A stretch of DNA of 52,789 nucleotides from Candidatus Levyibacteriota bacterium. GTDB lineage: Bacteria > Patescibacteriota > Microgenomatia > Levybacterales > UBA12049. Position numbers and translations under genes: made by a program. Below are positions 5,061 to 45,256 of the stretch, in pieces. Below the pieces are notes generated by a model. The model ran no database searches, was not told the origin of the DNA, and worked only from the letters and a program-made list of their open reading frames with translations. Location: the NCBI GenBank assembly GCA_027459725.1, contig DAIDHK010000008.1, positions 1-52,789 on the forward strand, written 5' to 3'. Every line of letters begins with the position of its first letter. Positions within the stretch are counted from its first letter, which is position 1.

Positions 5061-5096
5061 GTATTTGTTTGTTTTGCTCCACACAAATACGCCGCT

Positions 5097-15117: not shown

Positions 15118-15153
15118 ACGATCAATTCGCAGATTTCGTAAATACTCTTAAGT

Positions 15154-28232: not shown

Positions 28233-28250
28233 AATTTTATCCTACTCCTC

Positions 28251-28640: not shown

Positions 28641-28642
28641 AG

Positions 28643-28981: not shown

Positions 28982-28986
28982 CGAAA

Positions 28987-30068: not shown

Positions 30069-30073
30069 ACATT

Positions 30074-31141
30074 TCACCCCCCCAATATTAATTGGAATTG
30101 CCCTCGATACATTCCCATACTACACATAAATGGTAATACTCCCGGTTGAGATGGTGCGGTAAAGGTAAGCGTGTCTGATTGACCAGTAGGGACAACTTTT
30201 TGCACCCCAAGACTTGGAATAGTAAATGATTGTGTGCAGCCAACTCCACCAGTATTTTTTAAGTGAAGTGTTACCGTAGACCCAGCTTTAATTGCAAGGT
30301 TATTTGGATTGTAGCCGGATGCAGTTATTTCTATCGTTGGATTGTTTACTACTGTTCCTGCAGCTTGAGCAGTACCGTCACCAATGCCGTTATTCCCGCA
30401 CCAGCTCACTGTACACCAAAAACCCCTTGCTAAACTTCCTACAGTACTTCCAGCATTTTCAAGCGTTATATTGCTTCCCAACAATGCTGAAGCATTATTT
30501 GCATTAAAGATTGCTAAAAGAATAATGGCAATTGCTGCCAATTTCATAAAACCTTCCTGAAACATATCTCCCAGTTTTGTTGCAAAGTAACCTAAAATAA
30601 AAAACACAGGAGAAGTCCCAAGCACAAAAGCAAATAAAATTGCTGCCCCATACAGAGGTTTGCCTGATGCAACAGCGAGTGCCATCATGGCTTGGGTTGT
30701 CCCACAAGGAATAAAGATAGTAAATGCACCCAAAAGGGCGGGAGCAAAGACTGCCTGACTCTTTGATTGTTTACGAACCAGTCTGGTCAAAAATTTTGGC
30801 GGCTGGATAACAAAGTAGCGAAAGATTGGGTGAACATTAAGTATGTTTAATGCAGTCCCAACCATAAAAACTGCAACAGCAATTTGTAAAATTGCCCGGA
30901 ACTCTATGGATAAAGAGAAAAAAGAGCCAAGCATGCCAAGCAGGGCTCCAAGAGCAGTATAGGCAATAAGTTTTGCAGCAAGGAAAGCAAGGATTGGAAG
31001 CGCATTGCCTCCTTTTGCTTTATCCTCCAATTTTTGTTCTTCACGTTGTGCAAGTGTTGCAGCCAACAACCCCCCTTGTACTGCCATACAAGTAAGACCA
31101 CCTGTAATAAGTCCTGTTAAAAAAATAGCCCACAAATTCAT
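30074..31141 (-). CDS. polytopic permease (SO_0444/DsbD-like metal efflux type) fused to a C-terminal cupredoxin-like domain
   Basis: N-terminal LITGGLTCMAVQGGLLA. The C-terminal ~100 aa have a beta-rich cupredoxin-like pattern ending in FMCSMGMYRG. Confidence 0.6.
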   Translation of the reverse strand: MNLWAIFLTGLITGGLTCMAVQGGLLAATLAQREEQKLEDKAKGGNALPILAFLAAKLIAYTALGALLGMLGSFFSLSIEFRAILQIAVAVFMVGTALNILNVHPIFRYFVIQPPKFLTRLVRKQSKSQAVFAPALLGAFTIFIPCGTTQAMMALAVASGKPLYGAAILFAFVLGTSPVFFILGYFATKLGDMFQEGFMKLAAIAIILLAIFNANNASALLGSNITLENAGSTVGSLARGFWCTVSWCGNNGIGDGTAQAAGTVVNNPTIEITASGYNPNNLAIKAGSTVTLHLKNTGGVGCTQSFTIPSLGVQKVVPTGQSDTLTFTAPSQPGVLPFMCSMGMYRGQFQLILGG

Positions 31142-31153
31142 ATGAGTGTTCCT

Positions 31154-31170
31154 ACTACTTAGTGTAGTAT
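31154..31170. promoter_or_regulatory. CopY/BlaI-type box TACTACT-TAG-TGTAGTA
   Basis: Inverted repeat 13 nt upstream of the ATG of 30074..31141. One of five related boxes. Confidence 0.6.
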
Positions 31171-31205
31171 ATAAACAAAGGCATTACAAGAGATTATTTT
31201 GCTAT

Positions 31206-31919
31206 TCACAATGCCAATGCCTGATCTATCACTGTTTTCATTACGTCAAAAGATTGATTTCCTGAAAGGAGAATGGTATTCCCTTTAGAATCAATAACAA
31301 ACGTACCAGGTAATTGAAAAACGCCAGCAGAACTCCCGTCGGTTTCTTCAAATTTAACTGTGGATGCCATCGCTCCGGAGCTTAAACATTTCTCAAAATC
31401 ACTTTGATTTATGCCTACTTCTTTTGCAAAAATCGGAAGTTCATTCAGTGCTAATCCTGTTCCTCCTTCTGTTGGTAATACTTTCTCAAAAATTTTCTCA
31501 CTGAATTTCCAAAATGCGGTATTTCCCCCCTGCTTCCCTGCGCAGAGTGCAGCTTCTGCTTCTTTCTCTGCATTTTGATTTTGTGGGAGTGGAAAACGTC
31601 TGGAGACTAAACGTATTTTATCTCCATAATAGGAAAGTAGTTTACTGAGTGTCGGATGAAAATATTGGCATTGTGGGCATTCAAAATCTGAATACTCAAC
31701 CAAGGTGACTTTTGCTTGTGGGTTTCCCTCTATGTAATCGCTTTTTGTTACAGGTTCTATTTTTCCAGTTGGAGTTTGCCCAGCCTTTTCAAATTTACTT
31801 TTCGCTTCTAGATAGTTTACTTTCAAAAGCAGTGCAACAATCACAAGAATAACAAATGACAGCCCAGCTACCTTAGCGTAAGGTAAAAGGTGATTATTTT
31901 TTTTTGCTTCGTGGTACAT
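31206..31919 (-). CDS. membrane-anchored thioredoxin-fold (DsbA-like) protein
   Basis: CPQC active site (DFECPQCQYFHP). Start moved to MYHEAKKNN..., which precedes a TM anchor. Confidence 0.7.
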   Translation of the reverse strand: MYHEAKKNNHLLPYAKVAGLSFVILVIVALLLKVNYLEAKSKFEKAGQTPTGKIEPVTKSDYIEGNPQAKVTLVEYSDFECPQCQYFHPTLSKLLSYYGDKIRLVSRRFPLPQNQNAEKEAEAALCAGKQGGNTAFWKFSEKIFEKVLPTEGGTGLALNELPIFAKEVGINQSDFEKCLSSGAMASTVKFEETDGSSAGVFQLPGTFVIDSKGNTILLSGNQSFDVMKTVIDQALAL

Positions 31920-32409
31920 CACAATAGGCCTCCTTTTTTTGACTTCGAAGCAGAAGAAATAGTGAAAGAGAAAGTAACATAATGGAAAGAATAGGTAGTT
32001 CTGCTCCCTTAAAAGGAAGGTATAAAAGGCTTCCACTGAGTCCCAAAAGCGATAATAACGGTAATCCACACGAAACACATCCACCACTTACTATTCCAAG
32101 TAGTGCACTTCCTCCGGTAACAACATGAACATTGCCCATTTGTCTTAATAAAAAGATTTTGCGAAATGTTAAGGAAAGTGTTATCCCAGTTAAGCATGCG
32201 TTAATTACTAAAAGGACAAGGCTGGTTGTTGTCATAGTTGTTGTTAAACCTTGAAGAAGTGCTAAAAATAGCTTGAGCTTAAAATTGAGCGGAAAGTTTC
32301 CAAAGAGTGTTGTTCCAAGAAGTGAGCTATTCATCACAAATACAACAAACAGAAGATATAGAAGAGCAATTATAAGTGAAGAAAGAAGAATTTTCTTTGT
32401 GATACCCAT
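31894..32409 (-). CDS. small polytopic membrane protein with intramembrane CxxC (GGCVSCG)
   Basis: 171 aa, about 5 TM segments, sandwiched between two DsbA-like genes. Confidence 0.55.
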   Translation of the reverse strand: MGITKKILLSSLIIALLYLLFVVFVMNSSLLGTTLFGNFPLNFKLKLFLALLQGLTTTMTTTSLVLLVINACLTGITLSLTFRKIFLLRQMGNVHVVTGGSALLGIVSGGCVSCGLPLLSLLGLSGSLLYLPFKGAELPILSIMLLSLSLFLLLRSQKKEAYCDVPRSKKK

Positions 32410-32418
32410 ACTTTCATA

Positions 32419-33222
32419 TTATTTTTTTGTTAACTCTTGGTCAATAAGTGTTTGGAATGCAGAGTATGGTTGTGCACCAACAACTGGCAACCCATTGATA
32501 AATACTGTTGGTGTTCCACTTACTCCTGCTTTTTGTCCTGCTGCTAAATCGTCTTGAACATTCTTGTCATACTTTTTACTGTCAAGACAAGAGCGGAACT
32601 GATCAGTATTCATTCCGAGTTGCCCTGCAATTGTTGTCAAATTATCTGTTGTATACATGGAAGTATCTGATTCTGAGGGTTGGTTCTGGTAGAGATAATC
32701 ATGGAATTGCCAGAATTTCTTTTGTTCATTTGCACATTCAGAAGCATTTCCTGCAACTATTGAAGCTGGACCTAAGAATTGGTACTGGCGGTAATATAGA
32801 ACTGCCTTTCCTGTGTCAACATAGTCTTTAATAATTTGTGGTTCGGTATTTTTAAACCACTGATCGCAGAATGGACAACGCCAGTCTTCAAATGCAATAA
32901 TTTTTACTTTTGCATTTGGATTCCCTTGAGGAGGCAAGTGTCCAATATCTACATTCTGTCGTTGAGTAGGATTTGGAGCTTGAGGCTGATTGGGTGCTGC
33001 TGCTTGCTGTCCAGTTCCATAGGTTGATGGAGTACCACCACCAGATGATTGTAAATATTGAACCTTTGTAATAAGCATGCCAATAAGAAATGTCGCAATA
33101 AGAAGAAGCACCATAAGGAATGGGGTATAGCTTTTTGGCATAGGAATACTAAATGTTTTTACTACACTAGGCATAGTTACTTTACGTTCTTCTTTATGAG
33201 GAGATAATTTGGCTGCTTGCAT
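32419..33222 (-). CDS. membrane-anchored DsbA-family thiol:disulfide oxidoreductase (alternative start 33174)
   Basis: CPFC active site (WRCPFCDQW) and C-terminal GTPTVFING. Confidence 0.75.
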   Translation of the reverse strand: MQAAKLSPHKEERKVTMPSVVKTFSIPMPKSYTPFLMVLLLIATFLIGMLITKVQYLQSSGGGTPSTYGTGQQAAAPNQPQAPNPTQRQNVDIGHLPPQGNPNAKVKIIAFEDWRCPFCDQWFKNTEPQIIKDYVDTGKAVLYYRQYQFLGPASIVAGNASECANEQKKFWQFHDYLYQNQPSESDTSMYTTDNLTTIAGQLGMNTDQFRSCLDSKKYDKNVQDDLAAGQKAGVSGTPTVFINGLPVVGAQPYSAFQTLIDQELTKK

Positions 33223-33223
33223 A

Positions 33224-33240
33224 TACTACATATTGTAGTA
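33224..33240. promoter_or_regulatory. CopY/BlaI-type box TACTACA-TAT-TGTAGTA
   Basis: Perfect 7-bp arms, immediately upstream of ORF 32419..33222. Confidence 0.6.
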
Positions 33241-33267
33241 GTAATAAAATATGCTTGTCAAGTACTA

Positions 33268-34281
33268 TTATTTTAGAGGCGTATACATGTGAGAAGCGCT
33301 CTCTGCTGGAGAGTATGGAACAACTGTATTATGTTCTTTACACCAACTAGCGCAGTTATTCCCTTCCAAGCAAACCATCATCGAATCTTGTCTACTTGTA
33401 TGTACTTCAGTCGCATGTACGGGGACAGCAATACTGGCAATAAGTAATCCAAAAGAAAAAATACTGATAATAATGTTTCTTTTTTTTATTCTGGGAAGTG
33501 GTGGATTCTCATTAATGAGAGAACGAATTCGTGATTCAAGAGTTATACTCTCGCCGATTGCTGAAGCAAAAAGAAGAGAAGAAGCAGGAGTTTGTAAAAG
33601 TTTTTTTAAAACATTTATAAGCGGCTCTTTTGTTTCTAATTTTTTAATTGCCATATTGTCTGCCTGTATTTCTCGTTCAATTTTATATTGCTGCAACAAA
33701 TCAGTAATGATAGGAAAGAATGGGAAAAGAAACTGTGCTAGAAAAGCAATAAATAGAGTAAGCGAATCTTTATGTTCTAAATGATACTTTTCATGCCAGA
33801 GAATTGCCTCTAATTCTTGTTGATTCATCGTTTGTATCACCTTTGTCGAGAGATAAATGTGAGGACTTCTCAGTCCCAAACAAAAAGCAAACGGATGCGT
33901 ACTATTAACAACGGATACCTGTTTTTGTAAGCGTAGCTTCTTCAAAAGTGGCATTAGGGCTGCATATGCAGTAACATTTTTTACTAAGCTTTTTCTAAAG
34001 AAGTATTGTTTCCACAAAGTGTGGGAAAGTTTAATAAAAAAACTCAAAAGGAATAAACCCGTAAGACTAACAAATAAAAATGTAACTTGTCGAGGAATCT
34101 GAAGAGAATATGTACGAAAGACCTGCTGGCAATAGTATACCGTATGCCAAAAAAATAACGGGAGCAGTTTGTATAAGACAATCATACTAGATATTCCCAA
34201 AAAGGAGGCAATAAAAGAAAATTTTAGAAAGTTATTACTTAGTATCTGCTTCATGTTCAAGTAGTTTAAGAAAGTATTCAC
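33268..34281 (-). CDS. BlaR1/MecR1-like M56 membrane metalloprotease sensor without a penicillin-binding domain
   Basis: HEKYHLEHKD (HExxH zinc motif) and multiple TM segments. The short C-terminal tail has C-x5-C-x3-C. Overlaps the repressor gene. Confidence 0.7.
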   Translation of the reverse strand: MNTFLNYLNMKQILSNNFLKFSFIASFLGISSMIVLYKLLPLFFWHTVYYCQQVFRTYSLQIPRQVTFLFVSLTGLFLLSFFIKLSHTLWKQYFFRKSLVKNVTAYAALMPLLKKLRLQKQVSVVNSTHPFAFCLGLRSPHIYLSTKVIQTMNQQELEAILWHEKYHLEHKDSLTLFIAFLAQFLFPFFPIITDLLQQYKIEREIQADNMAIKKLETKEPLINVLKKLLQTPASSLLFASAIGESITLESRIRSLINENPPLPRIKKRNIIISIFSFGLLIASIAVPVHATEVHTSRQDSMMVCLEGNNCASWCKEHNTVVPYSPAESASHMYTPLK

Positions 34282-34624
34282 GTTTTTCTTTAGGCAATTC
34301 TTCTATACTTTCTGCAAATGAAGCAATTGCAGCATCTCCAAAGGAAGAAACAAAATTATGGAGAAAAGACGTTGCAATATTTTTACTATATGTTTTTTTG
34401 GAAAGAACAGGTTTATAAATATATGCTTTCCCTTGTTCTTGTTTTTTTATCATACCCTTTGCTTCAAGCCTATTAAAAAGCGTTGCAACGGTGGTGTAAG
34501 CAATAGATTTATTTTGATTAAGTTTGTTAAGTACATCTCGTACAGAACACTCTTTAAGCTCCCAAATAATATCCATTACTTCTTGTTCTAATGTACTAAT
34601 TGTTTTTAGTTTCATTTTTTTCAT
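34235..34624 (-). CDS. BlaI/MecI/CopY-family winged-helix repressor
   Basis: EQEVMDIIWELKECSVRDVLNKLNQNKSIAYTTVATLFNRLEAKGMI. Confidence 0.8.
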   Translation of the reverse strand: MKKMKLKTISTLEQEVMDIIWELKECSVRDVLNKLNQNKSIAYTTVATLFNRLEAKGMIKKQEQGKAYIYKPVLSKKTYSKNIATSFLHNFVSSFGDAAIASFAESIEELPKEKREYFLKLLEHEADTK

Positions 34625-34654
34625 AACTTTTGTATTGCAATAGTTAGTATATTC

Positions 34655-34671
34655 TACTACAATTTGTAGTA
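34655..34671. promoter_or_regulatory. CopY/BlaI-type box TACTACA-ATT-TGTAGTA
   Basis: Perfect 7-bp arms in the divergent region between the repressor operon and the M23 peptidase gene. Confidence 0.65.
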
Positions 34672-34693
34672 CACTTCCACTGGCTTAATTGTT

Positions 34694-35911
34694 ATGAGTA
34701 GAAAGATTGCCCTAATACTCCCCGTTTTATTTATTACTCTTCTTATTTTTACTACATCTTCTGCCTTTGGTCAAACAGTTACACCAACACCTACTCCAGA
34801 CATGTCCTTGCAAACTCAAGCACTCCAAGCAAAAATTGATGATCTTCAAAACAAAGTAAGTGGCTTACAAGGACAAGAAAAAACTCTCTCCTCACAGATT
34901 AAAATTATGGATAGTCAAATAACATTGACTCAGTTGCGTATTGATAAGACGCAACAAGACATTAGCAATTTAACGCTGGATATTGATACTGCAAGTAAAA
35001 AAGTATCAACACTGACCAATTCTCTGACAGAGCTAACAAATGTACTCCTTAAACGAATGGTCGCAAATTACGAAGTAGGAAGTCAGAACTCTTTTCTAAC
35101 GCTTCTGAGTTCTAGTGGTATTACTGATTTTTTCAAAAAGGCGAATTATTTGCATATTGTTCAAGAACATGATAGAAAGCTTGTCTATGACACAGTGCAA
35201 GCCAAAAACGACTACGCAAATCAAAAATCAATTTATGAAGATAAGAAGAAGCAGGTTTTGGGACTCCAAACGCAACTACAATCATATACAGATGAGCTTA
35301 ATCAACAAAAACAAGATAAACAATCTCTTTTAACAATTACACAAAACTCAGAAAGTGTTTATCAGCAACAACTTGCTGAGGCGATGAAAGAACTGCAGCA
35401 AATTCAGCAAGCCGCACAAACCCTTGTCTCAACAGCTCCTCATCATGTGAATAAAGGAGATATTATTGGCCTTATGGGAAATAGCGGTTATTCTTCAGGA
35501 GCGCATTTACACTTTGGGGTCTACGATATAACATCCCTTTCCCAGTACAGCTATTACGCAAACTATGAAAACCCGGCAAATGTGCTTAGTGCAACGAGTG
35601 TTGATTGGGAAACAGGATGTGGAGGAGATCCAGTCGGAAAAACCACAACAGGGAACGGAACTTTCGCCTGGCCACTAGCAACTGATAATCTTCATATTTC
35701 TCAAGGGTATGGAAAGACCTGTTATACTGGCGCCTTATATGGAGGTAAACCTCATCCAGCATTCGATATGTATAACAACACAAACATCGCTATCCACGCT
35801 GTTGAAGAAGGAGAAGCATATATCTGTCGCAATTGTACTGGTGATGGTGGCAATGGCGTATTTATCTTCCACCCTGATGGTAAGATGACACTCTATTGGC
35901 ATTTACAATAA
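34694..35911 (+). CDS. secreted coiled-coil M23 (LytM-type) peptidoglycan metalloendopeptidase
   Basis: Signal peptide, a long Q-rich coiled coil, and GNSGYSSGAHLHFGVYD. Confidence 0.75.
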   Translation: MSRKIALILPVLFITLLIFTTSSAFGQTVTPTPTPDMSLQTQALQAKIDDLQNKVSGLQGQEKTLSSQIKIMDSQITLTQLRIDKTQQDISNLTLDIDTASKKVSTLTNSLTELTNVLLKRMVANYEVGSQNSFLTLLSSSGITDFFKKANYLHIVQEHDRKLVYDTVQAKNDYANQKSIYEDKKKQVLGLQTQLQSYTDELNQQKQDKQSLLTITQNSESVYQQQLAEAMKELQQIQQAAQTLVSTAPHHVNKGDIIGLMGNSGYSSGAHLHFGVYDITSLSQYSYYANYENPANVLSATSVDWETGCGGDPVGKTTTGNGTFAWPLATDNLHISQGYGKTCYTGALYGGKPHPAFDMYNNTNIAIHAVEEGEAYICRNCTGDGGNGVFIFHPDGKMTLYWHLQ

Positions 35912-35919
35912 ATCTTTGT

Positions 35920-36498
35920 TTATCGCATAGAATGGAGCATTTCAACCATCTGTTGAACTTCTTGCCCTTGCTCTGTAATTGTTTTTTGTGCAAACCCAAG
36001 AAGTTCAGAATGTCCTCCCCCTACAACTTCCATCCGAGCCATTGCAATTGCTTGCTGGTGATGGGGTATCATCAATTCTACAAACGTTCTATCAACGTCA
36101 GAACTGCTTTGCAGCTCCTGTACCATGCTCATATCCATGCTTTGCATCTTAGGTTCGTCTCGAAACCACTGAACATACCAATTCTCTAACTGTTCAATCT
36201 CAGCTGTTTGGCTTGTCTTAATCTGTGCTGCCATTGCTTTGACATCTGCATTTGCCCCTCTTGTTAACTCAATGTCTGCCATTGTAACAGCCATTTGATG
36301 ATGAGGAATCATCATTTCAATAAAATGGCGATCCATCATATCTTGCTGCATAGGCATTCCTTTTATTTGTTGCATTGTGTTCATTTGCATAGAAGAGCTC
36401 GCATTTGCACCCGAAGAAGGCAATGAAGGAACAATAAGCAAACCTACAATTACTAGTGAGATACTTCTGGCAATAATCTTTAATTTCATAGTTTGCAA
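35920..36498 (-). CDS. DUF305-domain (ferritin-like, copper-resistance-associated) secreted protein
   Basis: Duplicated MMIPHHQMAV and LMIPHHQQAI motifs. Signal peptide present. Confidence 0.75.
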   Translation of the reverse strand: MQTMKLKIIARSISLVIVGLLIVPSLPSSGANASSSMQMNTMQQIKGMPMQQDMMDRHFIEMMIPHHQMAVTMADIELTRGANADVKAMAAQIKTSQTAEIEQLENWYVQWFRDEPKMQSMDMSMVQELQSSSDVDRTFVELMIPHHQQAIAMARMEVVGGGHSELLGFAQKTITEQGQEVQQMVEMLHSMR

Positions 36499-36582
36499 TA
36501 TTCACCTCCTTTACCACGAACAATTATTTTCCATAAGAAGTTTGAAAAGAAATAAAAAAACTTGTAAGAACTATGGCACATC

Positions 36583-36599
36583 TACTACAAAGTGTGGTA
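36583..36599. promoter_or_regulatory. CopY/BlaI-type box TACTACA-AAG-TGTGGTA (one mismatch)
   Basis: Lies in the divergent region between the DUF305 gene and the CAP-domain gene. Confidence 0.5.
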
Positions 36600-36609
36600 T
36601 GGTAAATGT

Positions 36610-37554
36610 ATGGTACGAAATTTGCATCATTTTATTCTCCCTCACAAGCATAAGAAAAAACATAGAAAAGCACATTTGCTGTCTATCCATGCACTTACTG
36701 TATATGTCTTTCTCTTTATTTTCATGCAGGTAGGCTTCCTTACTCTTCGTAATTTTGCTCCAGGTGTTTTAGGAACATCCTCAAGCATTACCAGACAACA
36801 AGTTATCGATTTAACAAATCAAGAGCGGCAACAATATGGTGATGCACCAGTTAAAGAAAACTCACTTCTAGATAAAGCAGCAGAAGAAAAAGCACAAAAT
36901 ATGTTTGCAGATAACTATTGGGCACATGTCAACCCAAAAACAGGTCAGACTCCATGGTATTGGATGCAACAAGCAGGGTATGGCTATATTTATGCTGGGG
37001 AAAATCTTGCGAGAGGATACAGTACATCTCAGGATGTCATGAATGCTTGGATGGCTTCAAAAATGGGACACAAAGAAAATGTGTTAGGCACTCACTACCA
37101 AGAAATTGGCGTTGCTGTTGAAGATGGAGTCATTGATGGAGAAAAAACAACACTTGTTGTTCAGATGTTTGGAGCACCAATAAATCCTCTAGCAAAGAAG
37201 GATGTTGGCAATGATGCAGCAGCAGTGCAGGATACAAATAAATTAGCAACGAATATTCCTAACACATACCCCGCGCAACCAGTGGCTCAAGAGGTGCATA
37301 GTGCAAGTACGCAAAGTGTTCCTGCTCCCTCGTTGTTAAATCAATTTAAATTGACCATTAATCCATATGCTCTTACCAGAAACTTTAGCATTGTTCTTAT
37401 GATGATGCTTAGTGTTCTTGCATTTCTTGACTTATTCCTCACAAGTAGAAGAAATGTTGCAGTAAAGTTACATTTACGTCATTTACCTCATGCTGGAGTA
37501 TTTGTCGCCGCAATGGCGATCCTTCTTATTGTACAAGCAGGATCAATTATTTAA
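36610..37554 (+). CDS. CAP/SCP (YkwD-like) domain protein with N- and C-terminal TM segments
   Basis: NQERQQYG...AEEKAQNMF...YWAH...GENLARGY...GHKENVL. Start moved to MVRNLHHF. Confidence 0.65.
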   Translation: MVRNLHHFILPHKHKKKHRKAHLLSIHALTVYVFLFIFMQVGFLTLRNFAPGVLGTSSSITRQQVIDLTNQERQQYGDAPVKENSLLDKAAEEKAQNMFADNYWAHVNPKTGQTPWYWMQQAGYGYIYAGENLARGYSTSQDVMNAWMASKMGHKENVLGTHYQEIGVAVEDGVIDGEKTTLVVQMFGAPINPLAKKDVGNDAAAVQDTNKLATNIPNTYPAQPVAQEVHSASTQSVPAPSLLNQFKLTINPYALTRNFSIVLMMMLSVLAFLDLFLTSRRNVAVKLHLRHLPHAGVFVAAMAILLIVQAGSII

Positions 37555-37596
37555 AATTCACGAAAAAAGCTTGTCTTTCCACATTTAAGTATATTT

Positions 37597-39822
37597 TTAT
37601 ACCGTAATTAAGCTTTTCTCCGCTCTATTCAATAAAACAGCATTAGTCGCGACAATAATTGATGAAAGACTCATCAAAAGCGCTGCCCATTCTGGACGAA
37701 GCTCAATACCAAATCTTGGATACAGAACTCCTGCGGCAATAGGAATTGCAAGCAGATTATAAATTGACGCCCAGAAAAGGTTTTGTTTCATTTTTCTAAC
37801 TGTTGCTTTGGAAAGCCTGATTGCTCGCAAGATATCTGCTGGGTCTGATTTCATCAGTACCACTTTTGCAGTTTCTATGGCAACATCTGTCCCTGCCCCA
37901 ATTGCAATACCGATATTTGCTTGAGCTAAAGCTGGCGCATCGTTGACCCCATCACCTACCATCGCAACAAATTTCTCCTCATCTTGCAGTTGTTTCACAT
38001 ATTTTGCTTTATCTTGGGGCATAACTTCTGCAAAAATTCGCTTTATACCAAGCTGTTTGCCAATTGCTTCTGCCGTTTGCTTGTTATCACCTGTAATCAT
38101 CGCAACCTCAAGCCCTAACTCCTGCATACGCTCAATAGCAATCTTTGCAGTTGGTTTGATTGGGTCTTGGGCTGCTGCAACACCAGCAACTTTACCATTA
38201 ATTGCCAAAATCATTAGTGTTTTTCCTTCACTAAGCAGCCTATCAATGTCTTTTTGAAGAGGCATAAGATCAACTTTTCTCTCCTGCATAAGCTTTTGTG
38301 TTCCAACCAAAATGCGTTTTCCCTCAACTGTTGCCTCAACTCCTAAGCCTGCAAGGGATTTAAATTCTGTTACTTTTTCTGGGACTATGGTCTTTCTTCT
38401 TGTTGCTTCTTCCATGACTGCTTTACTTAATGGGTGTCCTGATTTTGCTTCTGCTGCACTATCAAATCGAATTACATCGTCTTCTGAGAAGCCTTTCATT
38501 GCTACTACATCTGTTATTTTTGGTTTCCCTTCAGTAAGCGTCCCTGTTTTATCCAGTACAATTGCTTGGATTTTAGAAACCTGCTCAAGAGTTGGCGCAT
38601 CCTTAATAAGTATGTTATGTTTTGCCCCAAGACCAGTTCCAACAGCTACAGCGGTAGGCGTAGCAAGTCCCAGCGCATCAGGACATGCAATAACAACTGC
38701 TGAGATAGCAAAGGTCAGAGCAAAAAGCAGTGGTTGCCCTAAAACTAAAAACCAGACTAGAAACGTCAAAAGTCCGCCACCTACTGCAACAATCACTAAA
38801 TATTTTGCAAACCTGTCTGCAATTTTTTGCCCTGGAGCCTTGGAGTTCTGTGCAGTTTCAACCATTTTGACAATTTGGGCAAGCGCCGTATTTCCTCCTA
38901 TTTTTGTTGCCTTAAACGTAACTGATCCAGATTGGTTGATTGATCCGCCAATGACTTTGTCTCCTTTTCCCTTGGCAACAGGAATAGATTCACCAGTAAC
39001 AAGCGATTCATCTATTGCCGTATCTCCCTCGATAATTTCTCCATCCACCGGGACTTTATCTCCAGGTTTCAGAAGGACAATATCATTAAGTTTAACTTCT
39101 GAGGTCGGAACAAGTTGCTCTTTTCCATTTCGTATTACCCTGGCTTGGGGTGGAACAAGATTAAACAATGCTTGCAGAGCATCAGTTGTTCCTCTGCGTG
39201 ATTTCATTTCCATCCAGTGTCCAAAAAGTACAAACGTAATCAGCATAGCTGCTGCCTCATAGTACGAGTCCTGACTACCAAGAAAGGTAAGCACTACACT
39301 AAATCCATAGGCGGCAGTAATTCCAACTGCAATCAAAACTGCCATATTTAGTGTTTTCTGCTTAAGTGCTTGATAGGTAGAATACAGAAAAATCCATCCA
39401 GCATAAAAGTAAACGGGTGTTGTAAGAATAAGAAGCATCCATGGAACAGGTATTGGCGTAGGAAGCGTTATGCGAAAAATTTTTTCTCCAAGGGGTGAGT
39501 AAAGAATAATTGGAATTGTTAAAATTAAGGAAAAGAAGAACTTATTCCGAATATCTTCTTCCATAAGCTTTGCCATTTCTCGACCTGCAAGCCCTGTATG
39601 CTCCATGCCCATAGACATGGACATACTCATTTTGAATTTTTCCCAAAATGACATTTCAGATACAGGCTTCATCACGTGCTCTCCATGTTTCATGGTGCTG
39701 TGATCCATTTCCTCATGGTTCATTTTCATTTCAGTCTCAATAAACCTCATCCCGCACTTTGGGCAGGTGCCAGGTTTTTCTTGTTGTACCTCAGAATGCA
39801 TAGGACAGGTATACATTTTCAT
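37597..39822 (-). CDS. P1B-type heavy-metal ATPase with N-terminal YTCPMH..CPKCGM domain, Met/His-rich tract and unusual CPD transmembrane motif
   Basis: DKTGTLT, GDGVNDAP and ITGDN. The TM motif reads VIACPDALGLATP. Confidence 0.85.
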   Translation of the reverse strand: MKMYTCPMHSEVQQEKPGTCPKCGMRFIETEMKMNHEEMDHSTMKHGEHVMKPVSEMSFWEKFKMSMSMSMGMEHTGLAGREMAKLMEEDIRNKFFFSLILTIPIILYSPLGEKIFRITLPTPIPVPWMLLILTTPVYFYAGWIFLYSTYQALKQKTLNMAVLIAVGITAAYGFSVVLTFLGSQDSYYEAAAMLITFVLFGHWMEMKSRRGTTDALQALFNLVPPQARVIRNGKEQLVPTSEVKLNDIVLLKPGDKVPVDGEIIEGDTAIDESLVTGESIPVAKGKGDKVIGGSINQSGSVTFKATKIGGNTALAQIVKMVETAQNSKAPGQKIADRFAKYLVIVAVGGGLLTFLVWFLVLGQPLLFALTFAISAVVIACPDALGLATPTAVAVGTGLGAKHNILIKDAPTLEQVSKIQAIVLDKTGTLTEGKPKITDVVAMKGFSEDDVIRFDSAAEAKSGHPLSKAVMEEATRRKTIVPEKVTEFKSLAGLGVEATVEGKRILVGTQKLMQERKVDLMPLQKDIDRLLSEGKTLMILAINGKVAGVAAAQDPIKPTAKIAIERMQELGLEVAMITGDNKQTAEAIGKQLGIKRIFAEVMPQDKAKYVKQLQDEEKFVAMVGDGVNDAPALAQANIGIAIGAGTDVAIETAKVVLMKSDPADILRAIRLSKATVRKMKQNLFWASIYNLLAIPIAAGVLYPRFGIELRPEWAALLMSLSSIIVATNAVLLNRAEKSLITV

Positions 39823-39825
39823 ATA

Positions 39826-40347
39826 TTAACTTCCACAGGTTATACTTTTCTTTGCCATTTTTTCTATATAATCTTTGGTAACAGCTTGTCTCACCAATTT
39901 TTGGTCTTCCTTACCAATAAAAACAACCAAAATATCGTCAGGTTTGATTGGTTGCAGTTGATAATTCGCAACCTTTTCGCCATTAATATAACCCGTTGTC
40001 TTTGAATAATTGATAAGGAAGTGGATATTGGTAAATAAATCTTGCCACTTTGCCCCAGTACGCTCTATATGCACAACATCTCCCACGTTATCATGTAAAT
40101 GTGCTTTTTCAATTTGAATATCAGTAGGAGAATTATCATTATTTTTATTAAGAGTGCATGGTTCTAAAAACATATATTTAACATCAGAAAAATTTATCTT
40201 TTTATCATTCTTAAAAACCACAAATCCAGCGTGGTAATGAGTTTTTTGAGGAATAAAAAGTTTTTTTGAGATAAAGAGCATAGTGATACTTAACAGTACT
40301 ACAGCAATAAAGGGAATAAAAAGTATAACTGGTCTTTTTATTTTCAT
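39826..40347 (-). CDS. hypothetical membrane-anchored protein
   Basis: 173-aa ORF with an N-terminal TM, located 3 nt upstream of the ATPase start. Confidence 0.5.
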   Translation of the reverse strand: MKIKRPVILFIPFIAVVLLSITMLFISKKLFIPQKTHYHAGFVVFKNDKKINFSDVKYMFLEPCTLNKNNDNSPTDIQIEKAHLHDNVGDVVHIERTGAKWQDLFTNIHFLINYSKTTGYINGEKVANYQLQPIKPDDILVVFIGKEDQKLVRQAVTKDYIEKMAKKSITCGS

Positions 40348-40366
40348 ATATAAAATATCATACAGA

Positions 40367-40879
40367 TTAAAATAACTTTCTCAACATTGACTGATATTTT
40401 TGTGGGTTTTCAATTCCTGTTAATACTATATCATCCTGATATCCTCCTGATGCACTTGTTTTAAGAATTATATCTCCATAATGGAATAGTTTTCCAAGCC
40501 ATGATTGATTAATCGTGATAGAGCGAATATTATCATAGTGATACATTTCTTCATTCACATGCAATGTGCCAGTTCTTTTCACAATATGTCTATCAGTAAA
40601 AAAATAAAGATTGTTTGCCCAAGCTAACACGACATGTAACAAAAGTACCATTTGCAAAATATTTTTTATTAGTTGCAAGCCAAATAATAATTCAGATATA
40701 TGATGATGCAGATCAAATGGTAAAGAGATACCCAAGGTTAAGAGATAGAAAATCAGTGAATATATTCCATCAAATAATACCAGTATCATCAAAAGTTTGA
40801 CTATCAATATTGCAATGCTCCCTCGGACAGGTTCAAAGAATTTTTCTTTCTCGTCATGCCTACTACTAAATATTTCCAT
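40367..40879 (-). CDS. membrane protein with bacterial PH (YdbS/YdbT-like, bPH_2) domain
   Basis: Two TM segments followed by FFTDRHIVKRTG...ITINQSWLGKLFHYGDIIL. Confidence 0.55.
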   Translation of the reverse strand: MEIFSSRHDEKEKFFEPVRGSIAILIVKLLMILVLFDGIYSLIFYLLTLGISLPFDLHHHISELLFGLQLIKNILQMVLLLHVVLAWANNLYFFTDRHIVKRTGTLHVNEEMYHYDNIRSITINQSWLGKLFHYGDIILKTSASGGYQDDIVLTGIENPQKYQSMLRKLF

Positions 40880-40880
40880 G

Positions 40881-41216
40881 CTACTTTGCCCATTTGTTAT
40901 ACAATGCTGCTGAACAATAGGTCAAAATCCAGATTGTTGCTCCTAAAGCTAATACTCCGATAATGACTGAGCCAAAACTAATTTGTGTTGCGGCTGCATG
41001 CACAGAGCCTACGTTGAGAAAATGAAACCACGTTTGCGTGATAGAAAATGATAAATCTGGCAATAAAACGACGAACAAAGCACAAAGTGTGTAAGCGATC
41101 ATCCAGACTGTTGTTACTGCATTTGCTAAAATTCTTGGTTTTATCATATGGATGTCACCTTCTCTCCTTAAACCCATTCCCTCATAAATATCAGTATTAT
41201 TCGGTATGTGCTTCAA
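40881..41216 (-). CDS. small hydrophobic membrane protein (alternative start 41147)
   Basis: 111-aa ORF with 3 predicted TM helices. Confidence 0.5.
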   Translation of the reverse strand: MKHIPNNTDIYEGMGLRREGDIHMIKPRILANAVTTVWMIAYTLCALFVVLLPDLSFSITQTWFHFLNVGSVHAAATQISFGSVIIGVLALGATIWILTYCSAALYNKWAK

Positions 41217-41220
41217 ACAT

Positions 41221-43443
41221 TTATAATTTCACTTTCTTAAGAAGGAGAGAGTTAGAAACAACCGAGATACTAGACATTGCCATTGCAGCTGATGCAAAAA
41301 TCGGATTTAAAAGAACATGAAAGAAAGGATATAAAACACCCATTGCTACAGGAATTAAAACAATGTTGTACCCAAATGCCCAGACCAGATTTGTTTTGAT
41401 CGTCCTCATGGTTCTCTTAGAAAGAATTACCGCATCTGCAACTGAGTGTAAGTCTTTGTTAATAAGCGTGATATCTGCCGCTTCTATAGCAACATCTGTA
41501 CCCGTTCCCATTGCAATACCCACATCTGCCGCTGCTAAAGCTGGAGCATCATTAATGCCATCTCCAATCATTGCTACTTTTTTACCTTCTTTTTGTATCT
41601 TTCGCACTTCTGCTTCTTTTTGATCTGGAAGAACTTCAGCAAGAACTCTTGTTATACCAATCTTACGAGCGATCGCATCTGCTGTTCTGTGATTATCTCC
41701 TGTTATCATGGCAACTTCTATGCCCATGTTTTGTAGCTTTTGGACTGCATTTTTTGCTGACTCTTTAACTGTATCAGCAACTGCAATAAGTCCAACTAAT
41801 TTCCCTTCCTGTGCAAGCATCATAACGGTTTTTCCTTCGTGTTCAAGTTGCGCTATTTGTGTATTAAACGCAGTAATAGAGATACGTTCTCTTTCCAGTA
41901 GTTTTCTATTTCCAAAATAAAGCTGCTTTTCCTCCACAACTCCTTCAATACCATGTCCCGCAACAGCATGAAATTTAACAACAGAACCTAATTTCATTTT
42001 TCGTTTCTCTGCTTCTTTTACTATTGCATCTGCCAGAGAGTGCTCCGAACCTTTTTCTAACGAAGCGGCAAGCTGCAAAATACCTTCTTTACGTAATTTG
42101 CCTGTAGCGATAATATCTGTCACTTCAGGTTTCCCATTTGTTAATGTTCCTGTTTTATCAAAAACAACGGTATTAATTTTATTAGCAATTTCCAAGCTCT
42201 CAGCATCTTTAATAAGAATTCCATGTTCTGCTCCTTTTCCTGTGCCAACCATTATTGCAGTAGGCGTTGCAAGTCCCATTGCGCACGGACAGGCAATAAT
42301 AAGAACTGCAACGGTATTCAAAAGGGCAAATACAAACGCTTGATGGACACCAAAGATATACCAAACAGCAAAGGTTACAATAGCAAGCATAATAACAACT
42401 GGTACAAAATATGAAGAGATAAGATCGGCAATGCGCTGAATTGGTGCTTTAGAACCCTGGGCTTCCTGAACCAGTTGTATAATTTGTGCAAGCATTGTCG
42501 CTGAGCCCACTTTTATTGCTTTATAAGTAAATGTCCCGGACTTATTCATTGTTGCGCCAACTACAGTATCTCCTTGCACCTTATCAACTGGCATGCTTTC
42601 CCCTGTTATCATTGATTCGTCAATTGAAGACTCTCCATCAAGGATAATTCCGTCAACAGGTATTTTTTCTCCTGGCCTAACACGAATAATATCTCCAACT
42701 TCTACTTGATTTATCGGTATATCAATATCTTTTCCATTCCGAATAACTCGCGCTGTTTTTGCCTGTAATCCCAAAAGTTTTTTAATTGCATCCGATGTGC
42801 CTAATTTCGCTTTTGCTTCAAAATATCGACCCAAAAGAATAAGACCAATCACAATAGTCGCAACGTCGAAATACGGCATTGGGTCAAGACCAATCCTCAT
42901 AACTACTTGCGGGAAAATTGTTACAAAAGCAGAATAAAAATAGGCAACGGTTGTTCCTAATGCAACGAGAGTATCCATATTAGCAGTTCTGTGTTTTAAT
43001 GCAGGAATGGTTGCTCTATAAAAATCAAGCCCTGCCCAAAACTGGACTGGTGTCGCAAGTAAAAGAAGAATCCATGAATTATGGAGAATGGGTGGAGAAA
43101 TCTTTATAAGACCAGGAAAACTACCCCAAAGGATAAGGCTACCAAGTCCTAAACTTACCATCACTTTATTTTTCAGTATTTGCAGTTCTTGTTTTTTTTC
43201 AGTTGCTTGAGTAGTATCACTTTTTTCTTCAAGTTCTAATGTATAGCCGGTTTTTGCAATGGAGTCAGCTAATTGCTGTGGTGTACAAGAGTCTGTATTG
43301 TACGAAACAGTTGCTTTTTCTGTTGCTAAGTTGACTACTGCTTCTGTAACTCCGGGAACTTTTTTCAGTGCACGTTCTGTAACACGTACACAAGAAGCAC
43401 AATGCATGCCTTTTAATAAAAATGTTTTTTTTGTTGTTGCCAT
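41221..43443 (-). CDS. copA: copper-translocating P1B-1-type ATPase
   Basis: N-terminal HMA domain [24 protein letters not shown] and GDGINDAP. Confidence 0.9.
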
Positions 43444-43448
43444 ACGTA

Positions 43449-44003
43449 TTAAAACATTGGAGTCTGCTCAGGACCCCTATTACTGTTTATTACAAAGAAT
43501 GCTTTAATTGTTTTTTCGTCAATTGTTTGCAACTTGTAGAGTCTCCCCCAGGAAGTTAATGCAACCGGCACGTCTAAATTCTTTCGAGGAACCATAATAC
43601 CTTTTCCTGTTGTTTGTCGAAAGATTTGTTTTAGTTTTTCAACATCACTTGCCGAAAGAGAAGCATTATATGAAAGAATAACTGCTCCATGCTCCAAACT
43701 ATGCACAAGAAGCTCATCCGGTACTTCTGTATCATGAATTCCTGCTCCACCAACACCATCGCCATAATGCCATCCAGAAGTTGGGGGATTAGAATTGTAC
43801 GGCGGATGACTTTCGCCCCGTTTTATGTGAGTTTCCCCTTGTATAGTAATTGCTTCACCCATAAGAGGTTTCGTAGATGTTTGTGCAGAGATCGAACTTT
43901 GGTTTTGATTGCTATCTTGCTGGTTTGTGAAAAACACTCCGCCAACAATAATAAGAAGTGTTGCCAAACCTATGCCTAAAAATACTTTATGTTCTATTGT
44001 CAT
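43449..44003 (-). CDS. DUF3105-domain protein, membrane-anchored
   Basis: [15 protein letters not shown]...[10 protein letters not shown]. Confidence 0.7.
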
Positions 44004-44004
44004 A

Positions 44005-44364
44005 TTAGGTTACAATAATTTTGCCATGAAACATGTTCATTCCACACGCGTAGTCAAACTCACCTGTTTTTTCAGGAGTAACTACAACAGCTACTTTTTT
44101 GTTGAGAGGTAAATTCTTTCGTATACGAAAATCTCCAAGAACAACTTCCTCCAAACAACTTGAGGGATCTTTACGAATAAAATTAAGTGTTGTTTTCTTT
44201 CCTTTGGGAATAGAAATAACATTGGGAAAATATCCACCTTCAACAGTAATATCAATGCTACTGGTGTTCACTACTACTGCATCTTCCTCTTTTTTCATGA
44301 GAAAAAACCAATAAACAAATAGTATTCCACTAATACTTGCAATCGCTACAATAATTTTATCCAT
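44005..44364 (-). CDS. membrane-anchored cupredoxin-like domain protein
   Basis: N-terminal TM, then ITVEGGYFPNVISIPKGKKTTLNF...YACGMNMFHGKIIV. Similar to the C-terminal domain of 30074..31141. Confidence 0.65.
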   Translation of the reverse strand: MDKIIVAIASISGILFVYWFFLMKKEEDAVVVNTSSIDITVEGGYFPNVISIPKGKKTTLNFIRKDPSSCLEEVVLGDFRIRKNLPLNKKVAVVVTPEKTGEFDYACGMNMFHGKIIVT

Positions 44365-44372
44365 ATACCTAT

Positions 44373-44389
44373 TACTACAAACTGTAGTA
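44373..44389. promoter_or_regulatory. CopY/BlaI-type box TACTACA-AAC-TGTAGTA
   Basis: Perfect 7-bp arms, 9 nt upstream of the cupredoxin-gene ATG (head of the cupredoxin-DUF3105-copA operon). Confidence 0.65.
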
Positions 44390-44425
44390 GATGACTCATC
44401 TATTTGTCAAGGGTTTTCGTCACAA

Positions 44426-44698
44426 CTATTTTTGCTTTTGAAAAACAGTCATAATTTCTGTAATTGCCTCATCTTTTTTCCCTTTACTGATTGCATCTGC
44501 AACACAACCCTTCAAATGATTTTCTAAAAGTACATTTCCAGTTCCTTTTAATTGGCTTTCTACAGCTTGCAGCTGAGTAAGAATATCAATGCAGTATACG
44601 TCATCTTCAACCATCTTCATGACGTTTTCTATTTGTCCTTTGGCAATCTTGAGTCGGTGTAGAATTCTTTCTTGTGTATTTTTTGGTCTATATGCCAT
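44426..44698 (-). CDS. csoR: CsoR-family copper-sensing repressor
   Basis: ILHRLKIAKGQIENVMKMVEDDVYCIDILTQLQAV...HLKGCV. Confidence 0.85.
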   Translation of the reverse strand: MAYRPKNTQERILHRLKIAKGQIENVMKMVEDDVYCIDILTQLQAVESQLKGTGNVLLENHLKGCVADAISKGKKDEAITEIMTVFQKQK

Positions 44699-44719
44699 AT
44701 ATACCCCCTAGGGGTATAT
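44699..44719. promoter_or_regulatory. CsoR-type operator ATATACCCC-CTA-GGGGTATAT
   Basis: 9-bp perfect inverted arms with a G/C tract, starting at the base adjacent to the csoR ATG. Confidence 0.7.
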
Positions 44720-44784
44720 TACGTCTAAGAAAGATTTCTGTCAAGAGAACATAATTCTTCCAAAAGAAAACCATACTTCTTAAA

Positions 44785-44836
44785 AATAGCTTATCAAATC
44801 AAGCTATTGACAATTACTATCTTGCAGTGCTATAAG
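44785..44836 (+). promoter_or_regulatory. promoter TTGACA-18-TATAAG of the T4SS-like operon, overlapped by inverted repeat AATAGCTT-N8-AAGCTATT
   Basis: -35 at 44807-44812 and -10 at 44831-44836. The inverted repeat spans 44785-44808. Confidence 0.55.
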
Positions 44837-44847
44837 TTTGAATACTT

Positions 44848-44874
44848 AAAGCTGCCTCACTTGGCGGCTTTTTT
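44848..44874 (+). terminator. terminator-like 5' hairpin GCTGCC-tcactt-GGCGGC-T6 between the promoter and the pilin gene
   Basis: 6-bp GC-rich stem flanked by AAA and TTTTTT, about 20 nt upstream of the AAGGAGG-GTG start. Confidence 0.45.
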
Positions 44875-44894
44875 GTGTGAAAGGAGGTGTTATT

Positions 44895-45236: not shown

Positions 45237-45256
45237 AATAAGTTTCTTGAAAATAT

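Follow-up and report, generated by a model that had tools for sequence, protein, structure and literature searches.

Which regulator reads the inverted repeat (hereafter the box) that recurs at five sites in a 52,789-bp stretch of Candidatus Levyibacteriota contig DAIDHK010000008.1, and to what signal does it respond? The Patescibacteria cannot be grown alone and their regulation is almost unstudied. The stretch analysed here at its full length, which we call the window, encodes a predicted repressor at 34235-34624 that is related to BlaI, and beside it a predicted protease that is related to BlaR1. BlaI and BlaR1 form the textbook switch for beta-lactam resistance. Many bacteria, however, have atypical BlaI-BlaR1 (BlaIR) pairs without the antibiotic-sensing domain, and to our knowledge nobody knows the signals to which these respond. 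Taken as a whole, the explanation that we consider probable is that the boxes are operators of the 34235-34624 repressor, that the repressor is released through the protease, and that the signal is copper or thiol stress.

Five boxes in predicted promoters

Both strands of the window were searched with TACTACANNNTGTAGTA, allowing up to two mismatches. This gave five matches where 0.17 are expected from 100 dinucleotide-preserving shuffles, none of which produced five; these counts, like the others given for the window, refer to its 52.8 kb. Each of the five has at most one mismatch and all lie between genes. A preliminary description of this DNA had reported one inverted repeat at five sites, and exactly this was recovered, although two details have to be corrected. 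The first site is at 31153-31169 and not, one base off, at 31154-31170, and box 4 is not the only imperfect copy, as box 1 also deviates, so that three boxes are perfect and two are imperfect (Table 1).

At three mismatches the search adds matches at 1268, 20366 and 37484, all within open reading frames (ORFs) and at the chance rate (2.58 expected), and these candidate weak boxes were rejected. Lone half-sites are not enriched in the window (21 found, nine of them within the five boxes, against 11.4 expected). An isolated TACTACA half-site is present at 33160-33166 in the first DsbA gene, 57 nt 3' of box 2 (64 nt from start to start), and may be there by chance, given the expected half-site frequency.

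All five boxes stand in the same register to a predicted promoter. A -35 hexamer (TTGACA, TTGTAA or TTGCAA) is followed, after a spacer of 17-18 nt, by a -10 hexamer TACAnT that coincides with box positions 4-9, and the start codon lies 1-22 nt past the box. The left arm holds the -10 hexamer (TAC-TACAnT), and the right arm lies over the discriminator and the predicted transcription start. Given the short distance to the start codon, the mRNAs are predicted to be leaderless or nearly so, and we hold with considerable confidence that the operator overlaps the -10 to +1 region of predicted leaderless promoters. With -10 hexamer, discriminator and predicted start all inside the box, RNA polymerase would be kept out by any protein that occupies the dyad.

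Box 3 is common to two divergent promoters. On the plus strand it forms part of the promoter of an M23 peptidase gene, and on the minus strand it lies next to a candidate -10 hexamer of the repressor-protease operon, a position that implies autoregulation. Box 4 had been described as lying between the DUF305 and CAP-domain genes. The CAP promoter does carry this box and the box faces the CAP gene, whereas its control of the DUF305 gene, which starts 84 nt away on the opposite strand, is uncertain. The gene labels of the preliminary description agree with Pfam.

A BlaI-type repressor with a sensor-less BlaR1-like partner

The repressor, a protein of 129 amino acids (aa), matches PF03965 (Penicillinase_R) over residues 9-122 with 98.4 bits (cut-off 22.6). 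Its sequence matches in the Protein Data Bank (PDB) are MecI, BlaI, Mycobacterium tuberculosis Rv1846c (2g9w) and Lactococcus lactis CopR only. Among all six-frame ORFs of the window, the hidden Markov model (HMM) of the family has a sole match, at 34238-34684 on the minus strand, which bears out the earlier statement that the window contains no other BlaI/CopY-family repressor.

The most conserved stretch in the C-terminal half of the repressor is SFGD-AIASF-AE. Residues S102-F103 are aligned with N101-F102 of BlaI and MecI, which we take to be the scissile bond of BlaI. In the alignment of homologues F103 is invariant and S102 nearly so.

The same family includes CopY, and the locus could be read as a CopY system, in which the repressor itself binds Cu(I), displaces Zn and leaves the DNA, with no part in signalling for the M56 protease. 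The presence of copA, copZ and cupredoxin genes in the regulon would suit this, and by E-value the best NCBIfam match of the repressor is indeed CopY_TcrY. However, the score against this equivalog (TIGR02698) is 61.8 bits where the cut-off is 121.95, and the match covers profile positions 1-95 of 130, the DNA-binding part. The CxCx4CxC or CxC motif by which CopY is defined (PMC11672702, PMC7253601) does not occur in the repressor, whose C-terminus reads ...KLLEHEADTK, and CxC is also absent from every homologue in the repressor alignment (A1). The sole cysteine, C26, lies in the DNA-binding domain and is not invariant. Lacking a cysteine motif, the repressor would be without CopY-like metal sensing. 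In addition, the spacer of the box is 3 nt, in contrast to 2 nt in the cop box RNYKACANNTGTMRNY (PMC7253601), and virtually every relative has its M56 gene overlapping that of the repressor. A CopY mechanism is thus quite improbable, and by its sequence the repressor is a member of the Penicillinase_R family but not a CopY. Of the 'CopY/BlaI-type regulon' that had been proposed, the BlaI/BlaR1 type can be kept and the CopY type is to be dropped.

The protease gene starts at ATG 34254 and overlaps the stop codon of blaI by 20 nt, as it does in the related locus L081, and this overlap suggests translational coupling of the two predicted genes. The longest ORF would begin at GTG 34281 (337 aa), but homologues have 325-335 aa and start at the equivalent of ATG 34254. 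The protein has the motifs HEKYH and ExxAD; HExxH is found in 64 of 64 homologues, and H154, E155, H158, E195, A198 and D199 are invariant. An AlphaFold2 model computed with 60 homologues (mean predicted local distance difference test score, pLDDT, 81; predicted template modelling score, pTM, 0.78) was compared with the PDB by Foldseek. The best fold matches are the cryo-electron microscopy structures of Staphylococcus aureus BlaR1 (8EXS, 8EXQ, 8EXP and 8EXR; probability 1.0).

What the protease lacks is a penicillin-binding (class D beta-lactamase-like) sensor domain, as it ends about 50 residues past the last transmembrane (TM) helix. Its match to NCBIfam blaR1_generic covers profile positions 104-339 of 585 and scores 47.8 bits against a cut-off of 400. 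The tail of about 50 aa has the consensus PV-A-E-H-x4-D-x2-M-x-C-x5-C-x3-C, with C295, C301 and C305 in the window copy, and the motif C-x(4-9)-C-x3-C is present in 54 of the 64 homologues. The loop between TM1 and TM2 contributes H37 and an invariant C42 (H..YYC). In the order of secondary-structure elements of the model, loop and tail each form one beta-hairpin, followed by a short helix that carries C301 and C305. According to the model, both would lie on the membrane face opposite the protease domain, and we infer that they pack together as a mini-ectodomain.

The box accompanies the repressor gene in related genomes

Homologues of the repressor are all from Patescibacteria, chiefly from Microgenomates (Gottesman-, Woese-, Levy-, Roizman- and Daviesbacteria) and WWE3. 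We collected 80 loci by similarity to the repressor (individual loci carry handles beginning with L) and tolerated two mismatches per box. At least 61 of the 80 have a box within 40 nt 5' of the repressor gene, and the start codon of most blaI orthologues is found -1 to +5 nt past the box. A second box, usually perfect, stands just 3' of blaR1 in 52 loci, before a gene whose product, usually DsbA-like, has about 250 aa and a membrane anchor; the position of box 2, after blaR1 and before a DsbA-like gene, is thus kept in 52 related loci. In the related loci and the window together (1.19 Mb), the box occurs 59 times in perfect form and 59 times with one mismatch. For 200 palindromes built by permuting the half-sites, the means in the same DNA are 0.005 perfect and 0.335 one-mismatch copies, so that the box is enriched about 10,000-fold.

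Three loci (L081, L082 and L083; repressors 78-79% identical) form a sub-lineage with the window, and in these a separate TATAAT stands between the box and blaI. In L082 and L083 the CAP gene and blaI are divergently oriented, with a box over the -10 hexamer of the CAP gene (5073-5089 and 4541-4557, respectively). L081 is syntenic with the window, with genes for an ATPase, BlaI, BlaR1, DsbA, the CxxC protein, DsbA, the DsbD_2-cupredoxin fusion and an HMA protein, and has boxes at the orthologous promoters, including the orthologue of box 1 at 7670. The module of box and repressor recurs in dozens of uncultured Patescibacteria genomes, and the boxes are very probably operators of the 34235-34624 repressor, as judged from these sequence patterns.

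In other genomes, more than 200 sites show the same fixed register of the box to the -35 hexamer and the start codon. Such regularity could also mean that the palindrome is a promoter or RNA-polymerase element, for instance a special -10/discriminator of leaderless genes or an alternative sigma site, that blaI merely uses. Box positions 4-9 are the -10 hexamer, and a perfect TTGACA stands 17 or 18 nt 5' of TACAnT in 51 of 107 target boxes. In the target-box consensus TACTACA.T.TGTAGTA, taken from a position-frequency table, the T at position 9 breaks the dyad symmetry, as TAnnnT predicts. But the right arm TGTAGTA (positions 11-17) is conserved at 82-100% and matches the reverse complement of the left arm base for base, which goes beyond the needs of a sigma-70 promoter and is not explained by sigma-70 contacts. 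The predicted leaderless promoters of csoR1 and csoR2 have ordinary -10 hexamers that are followed by other palindromes. Box and -10 hexamer can also be separated: in the sub-lineage of the window, and where relatives have a box at csoR, the box has shifted into the spacer and the promoter has another -10 hexamer. Furthermore, the TACA/TGTA core is a known recognition element of the repressor family (PMC7253601; S. aureus operators). We regard a pure promoter element as very improbable. Repressor-proximal boxes follow t.CTACAaT.TGTAGTA, and the degenerate outer left arm may make the autoregulation of blaI leakier.

Because conjugation genes (Replic_Relax, type IV secretion system (T4SS) pilins, PrgI and a VirB4/TraG-like ATPase) occur in the window, we also considered whether the repeats are termini or relics of mobile elements, such as miniature inverted-repeat transposable elements, attC-like sites or recombination sites in the metal island of a conjugative element. 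Their shortness, their inverted-repeat form and their restriction to 13 kb of cargo would suit such an origin. The repeats are, however, single 17-bp units instead of paired termini around an insert, they keep their register at all five sites as well as in the other genomes, and they occur beside the repressor gene in the chromosomal contexts of many lineages. This leaves an origin from mobile elements with next to no probability.

Outside the operator type described so far, homologues from Actinomycetota and one from Sporosarcina have upstream palindromes of the form TAC(T/G)AC-N5-GT(A/C)GTA (L068 at 9892 and ~9946; L075; L077; L074), and this 6-5-6 geometry therefore appears to be common to a wide clade of sensor-less BlaI proteins. 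A 6-5-6 geometry was reportedly also found by Sala et al. 2009 for the motif of BlaI in M. tuberculosis.

Genes downstream of the boxes

In the repressor-anchored loci, 91 distinct proteins are encoded downstream of boxes. Thioredoxin_4/DsbA proteins make up 48 of these, followed by cupredoxins (4), multicopper oxidases (3), CsoR (3), YtkA (3) and HMBD ATPases (2), with one each of DUF305, DsbD_2, DsbB and M23. A scan of metagenomes anchored on the promoter (TTGACA-N14/15-box, 20 specified bases, no repressor anchor) found at least 120 loci. Among the matches listed there are 102 distinct downstream proteins, with 52 Thioredoxin_4, 13 DsbD_2, 10 HMA, 9 Penicillinase_R, 8 cupredoxin, 2 CsoR and 1 DUF3105 protein, and about 10 members of a 484-497-aa family without a Pfam match. 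No beta-lactamase, penicillin-binding protein (PBP) or transpeptidase family was found among the 193 box-downstream proteins (of which the 102 are from the matches listed) or in the window regulon.

BLAST further identified box-driven homologues of M23 (L008:17888), DUF305 (L014:5482), the HMBD ATPase (L021, L056), CsoR (L006, L013, L021), the DsbD_2-cupredoxin fusion (L035) and the CxxC membrane protein (L060). These counts support a regulon whose putative core consists of extracytoplasmic thiol-disulfide enzymes (DsbA-like and DsbD-like), with copper efflux as a recurrent accessory. The window is a rich example of it, with the whole copA operon and the M23 and CAP genes under box promoters. 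It had been proposed from the window alone that one repressor coordinates copper, thiol-redox and secreted-protein genes, and the related loci lend strong support to this proposal. In addition to the boxes at the repressor gene itself in at least 61 of 80 loci, boxes elsewhere precede homologues of DsbA, DsbD_2-cupredoxin, CAP, M23, DUF305, HMBD ATPase and CsoR.

Frequent among the targets are proteins of about 466-509 aa with an HMA domain at the N-terminus (GMHCASCEILIEK; L088, L116, L129, L149, L165 and L173). The final base of the box is already part of their ATG, and they are predicted to be translated from leaderless mRNAs. The N-termini and lengths of these proteins, together with the Pfam counts of the whole set, suggest that several HMA-start targets are HMA-DsbD_2 fusions.

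Between the two DsbA genes of the window lies the gene of a 171-aa polytopic membrane protein (31894-32409, minus strand) with a GGCVSCG motif. It shares a domain with the 484-497-aa family (L084:945-2435; L046, L050, L053, L057 and L060), whose genes rank with the commonest box-driven ones of Roizmanbacteria-like contigs. NCBIfam and Pfam gave no match for this CxxC protein, for the 173-aa and 166-aa proteins of the window or for the 497-aa box-driven family. The CxxC protein could be an analogue of DsbB/VKOR and would then supply the redox partner that is missing for the DsbA-like proteins.

Proposed mode of regulation

In the mechanism that we propose, a repressor dimer bound to the boxes would occlude RNA polymerase at five predicted leaderless promoters. 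These would serve the DsbD_2-cupredoxin/copZ operon, the operon of the two DsbA-like proteins and the CxxC protein, the M23 gene with the divergent blaI-blaR1, the CAP gene, and the operon that runs from the cupredoxin to the HMBD ATPase. Activation of the coupled M56 protease would then lead to cleavage or inactivation of the repressor near S102-F103. By homology with BlaI/BlaR1, release of the repressor through this protease is likely. The trigger could be extracytoplasmic copper and/or a disturbed thiol-disulfide status, perceived by the Cys/His/Met module of the TM1-TM2 loop and the tail. The contents of the regulon and the sensor tail tip the balance slightly towards copper and/or thiol stress as the signal. 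Copper catalyses wrong disulfides and binds free envelope thiols, and because of this damage a regulon that joins Dsb and Cop functions makes biological sense. A second layer would be provided by CsoR, a cytoplasmic Cu(I) sensor with its own operator upstream of the copA operon.

BlaI/BlaR1-type operators would equally be compatible with a general cell-envelope or peptidoglycan cue in place of copper or thiol redox. The M23 and CAP genes, which are in the regulon here and in relatives, have no obvious relation to copper, so that the signal could be a broader envelope stress. About 10 of the 64 BlaR1-like proteins have no Cys-rich tail and yet keep the box-DsbA arrangement, and the cysteines therefore cannot be the sole sensing element. 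Atypical BlaIR pairs of M. tuberculosis, Mycobacterium abscessus and Pseudomonas aeruginosa are likewise without an assigned signal (bioRxiv 10.64898/2026.08.03.742534). On the other hand, most targets in both censuses, one of them taken among the matches listed, belong to the thiol-disulfide oxidoreductases, the thiol transporters or the copper proteins. Neither a beta-lactamase nor a PBP gene lies 3' of a box among the listed matches, and four extracytoplasmic cysteines are conserved together with His and Met. We consider a general envelope cue unlikely.

Beyond the tail-less homologues and the M23 and CAP genes, several observations speak against a BlaI/BlaR1-type switch for copper and thiol stress as laid out above. 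The presumed P1 residue of the repressor is Ser, compared with Asn in BlaI, and the blaI promoter of the window has a poor -35 hexamer. No convincing -35/-10 pair was found between box 4 and the DUF305 gene. Conservation of the left arm is in part due to the -10 hexamer itself, and the motif counts of the window do not extend to the rest of the genome. Sequencing runs that contain the locus were of DNA or mislabelled, and mine-drainage metatranscriptomes gave zero read coverage of it, so that transcription starts and leaderless status are predictions.

It is possible, though we would put it at somewhat less than an even chance, that there is a pathway, widespread in Patescibacteria, in which a sensor-less BlaR1-type protease reads extracytoplasmic copper or disulfide status by means of a mini-ectodomain of four cysteines with His and Met, cleaves a BlaI-type repressor and switches on leaderless dsb and cop genes. 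If so, it would give the atypical BlaIR systems their first assignable signal and represent a fourth type of copper/thiol-stress sensor beside the one-component CueR/CsoR/CopY and the two-component CusRS/CopRS systems. The box marks targets in hundreds of uncultured genomes, overwhelmingly genes for disulfide-bond enzymes and copper defence. As the regulon can be read from the sequence, it provides a concrete signal hypothesis for one atypical BlaIR clade. It also represents a rare predicted transcription network in Patescibacteria, for which leaderless, operator-embedded promoters are indicated in this stress regulon, and the box could serve as a practical annotation marker for regulon genes, including several families of no known function.

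Table 1. Boxes, predicted promoters and genes of the putative regulon, with csoR1 (positions in the window)
Feature	Position	Strand	Details
Box 1	31153-31169	-	TACTACTTAGTGTAGTA; 1 mismatch (T for A, position 7)
Box 1 promoter	-35 TTGTAA 31189-31184; -10 TACACT 31166-31161	-	17-nt spacer; ATG 31141, 11 nt past box
Box 1 operon	29847-31141	-	DsbD_2 permease-cupredoxin fusion 30074-31141; HMA (CopZ-like) 29847-30077; Pfam
Box 2	33224-33240	-	perfect
Box 2 promoter	-35 TTGACA 33261-33256; -10 TACAAT 33237-33232	-	18-nt spacer; ATG 33222, 1 nt past box; mRNA predicted leaderless
Box 2 thiol-redox operon	31206-33222	-	DsbA-like 32419-33222; 171-aa CxxC membrane protein 31894-32409; second DsbA-like, end 31206
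BlaR1-like M56 zinc metalloprotease, 328 aa	33268-34254	-	PF05569, 68.6 bits
BlaI/MecI/CopY-family repressor, 129 aa	34235-34624	-	Penicillinase_R
Box 3	34655-34671	both	perfect; common to two divergent promoters
Box 3 promoter, plus strand	-35 TTGCAA 34635-34640; -10 TACAAT 34658-34663	+	17-nt spacer; M23 gene, start 22 nt past box
Box 3, minus-strand side	candidate -10 TATACT 34651-34646	-	box just upstream; blaI-blaR1
Secreted M23 peptidase	34694-35911	+	coiled-coil N-terminal part (PcsB-like); Pfam; predicted regulon member via box 3
DUF305 protein	35920-36498	-	own Shine-Dalgarno GGAGG; Pfam; possible regulon member
Box 4	36583-36599	+	TACTACAAAGTGTGGTA; 1 mismatch
Box 4 promoter	-35 TTGTAA 36562-36567; -10 TACAAA 36586-36591	+	18-nt spacer; in-frame ATG 36610, 10 nt past box
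CAP-domain (SCP-like) membrane-anchored protein	36610-37554	+	Pfam; predicted regulon member via box 4
Box 5	44373-44389	-	perfect
Box 5 promoter	-35 TTGACA 44410-44405; -10 TACAGT 44386-44381	-	18-nt spacer; ATG 44364, 8 nt past box
Box 5 copper operon, 6.8 kb	37597-44364	-	seven genes; Pfam
Cupredoxin	44005-44364	-	box 5 operon
DUF3105	43449-44003	-	box 5 operon
CopA-type P1B ATPase with HMA	41221-43443	-	box 5 operon
DUF5676	40881-41216	-	box 5 operon
bPH_2	40367-40879	-	box 5 operon
173-aa protein	39826-40347	-	box 5 operon
Second P1B ATPase with HMBD	37597-39822	-	box 5 operon
csoR1	44426-44698	-	PF02583, 93 bits; best NCBIfam match RicR
csoR1 promoter	-35 TTGACA 44744-44739; -10 TAATAT 44721-44716	-	17-nt spacer; predicted leaderless, ATG 44698
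CsoR-type GC-rich operator	44702-44716	-	TACCCCCTAGGGGTA; directly before csoR1 ATG

CsoR and the surrounding island

The product of csoR1 has the ligand set C36/H61/C65 (YC36ID...NH61LKGC65), in agreement with the x-C-H-C signature. The gene lies upstream of box 5 in the same direction and no terminator is predicted between the two, so that the copA operon can receive read-through from the CsoR promoter in addition to initiation at the box promoter. In the csoR promoters of three relatives (L006 ~13450-13560, L021 ~3620-3720 and L013 ~15060-15170) a BlaI box in the -35/-10 spacer is followed by a CsoR-type palindrome (e.g. ATCCCCATAAGGGGGAT) and then by the ATG. These tandem operators imply that CsoR is under BlaI control there and that dual control is a recurring design.

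The preliminary description counted two CsoR repressors. This holds for csoR1 with its C-H-C ligands, but the second CsoR-family gene (29484-29750, minus strand) encodes a protein with one cysteine (C35), no Cu(I) ligands and weak matches to FrmR/RcnR. This protein is not to be reckoned among the copper sensors, and might respond to sulfur or to some other signal than copper. Its gene heads an operon (27678-29750, minus strand) that also encodes a 166-aa protein, a rhodanese, a DUF302 protein and a 184-aa protein. Its promoter reads TTGACT, a 17-nt spacer, TAGTAT, AGGGATAGGGGTAT and ATG, and is predicted to be leaderless.

Hallmarks of conjugation flank the island (25484-26245 and 44877-49445), including Replic_Relax, two T4SS pilins, a PrgI-like protein and a VirB4/TraG-like ATPase, and a CDF cation-efflux gene is present at 26782-27663. 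The metal/thiol island probably travels on a Patescibacteria mobile element. A megablast search of 30000-45000 against the PLSDB plasmids gave no match. DNA of the window was detected in metagenomes from soil, mine drainage and groundwater, an occurrence that fits metal exposure. In a public aquatic metagenome contig of 90-95% similarity, 43410 is joined to 44005 with 35 unrelated bases between them; the contig would carry a related copper operon from which DUF3105 is missing.

Comparison with known systems

The system most resembles BlaI/BlaR1 and MecI/MecR1 of S. aureus, which likewise combine a winged-helix Penicillinase_R repressor with an adjacent, co-transcribed M56 protease (HExxH, ExxxD). 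The operators of BlaI and MecI are also dyads with a TACA/TGTA core over promoters, their own included, and both repressors have Phe at the position of the scissile bond. The bla operators of S. aureus are, however, of the form TATTACA-NN-TGTAATA with a 2-nt spacer, whereas the boxes have TACTACA arms and a 3-nt spacer. The penicillin-binding sensor domain of BlaR1 has no counterpart in the protease of the window, and the targets in S. aureus are beta-lactamase and PBP2a, in contrast to DsbA/DsbD and copper genes behind predicted leaderless promoters.

Atypical BlaI-BlaR pairs (M. tuberculosis Rv1846c/Rv1845c, M. abscessus and P. aeruginosa PvmSR) have no beta-lactam sensor domain and control regulons that are wider than beta-lactam resistance (bioRxiv 10.64898/2026.08.03.742534). 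They share the sensor-less BlaR with the locus described here, and Rv1846c (2g9w) is a relative that can be detected by sequence. The differences are a conserved, putative Cys/His/Met ectodomain, a box fused to the -10 to +1 region, and the occurrence in Patescibacteria.

In CopY, the CxC motifs at the C-terminus serve for direct sensing of Cu(I)/Zn(II) (PMC11672702, PMC7253601), and L. lactis CopR controls a regulon of several operons (PMC7253601). CopY and CopR have in common with the repressor studied here the Penicillinase_R family, a TACA..TGTA dyad and copA/copZ-type targets. They differ in having CxC and a 2-nt operator spacer, compared with no CxC and a 3-nt spacer here, and CopY has no protease partner. 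That the box has a TACA-N3-TGTA core with a longer spacer and other arms was already part of the preliminary description, and the comparison with the bla operators of S. aureus and the 16-base cop box (PMC7253601), both with 2 nt, agrees with it.

The resemblance to CsoR systems is limited to csoR1, with its C-H-C ligands and the GC-rich operator at its own promoter; this is a separate layer that does not recognize the TACTACA box. Anabaena TrcR (motif ATACTACACTTGTATTAC) was rejected as unrelated, being a ribbon-helix-helix protein.

In enterobacteria, copper stress is tied to periplasmic thiol-disulfide enzymes through Scs and DsbC, under regulation of the CpxR/CueR type. There, copper defence goes together with expression of DsbA/DsbG-like and DsbD-like proteins, which offers a precedent for a Dsb-Cop regulon, but the regulation is not by a BlaI/BlaR1 pair and no homology of regulators is implied. 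A limited literature search found no paper that ties BlaI/BlaR1-type systems to copper or Dsb genes or places them in Patescibacteria. Relative to these systems, what appears to be new here, and is conserved throughout a large radiation of uncultured bacteria, is a predicted BlaI/BlaR1-type switch with a different sensor, a Dsb and copper regulon, and operators fused to promoters that are predicted to be leaderless.

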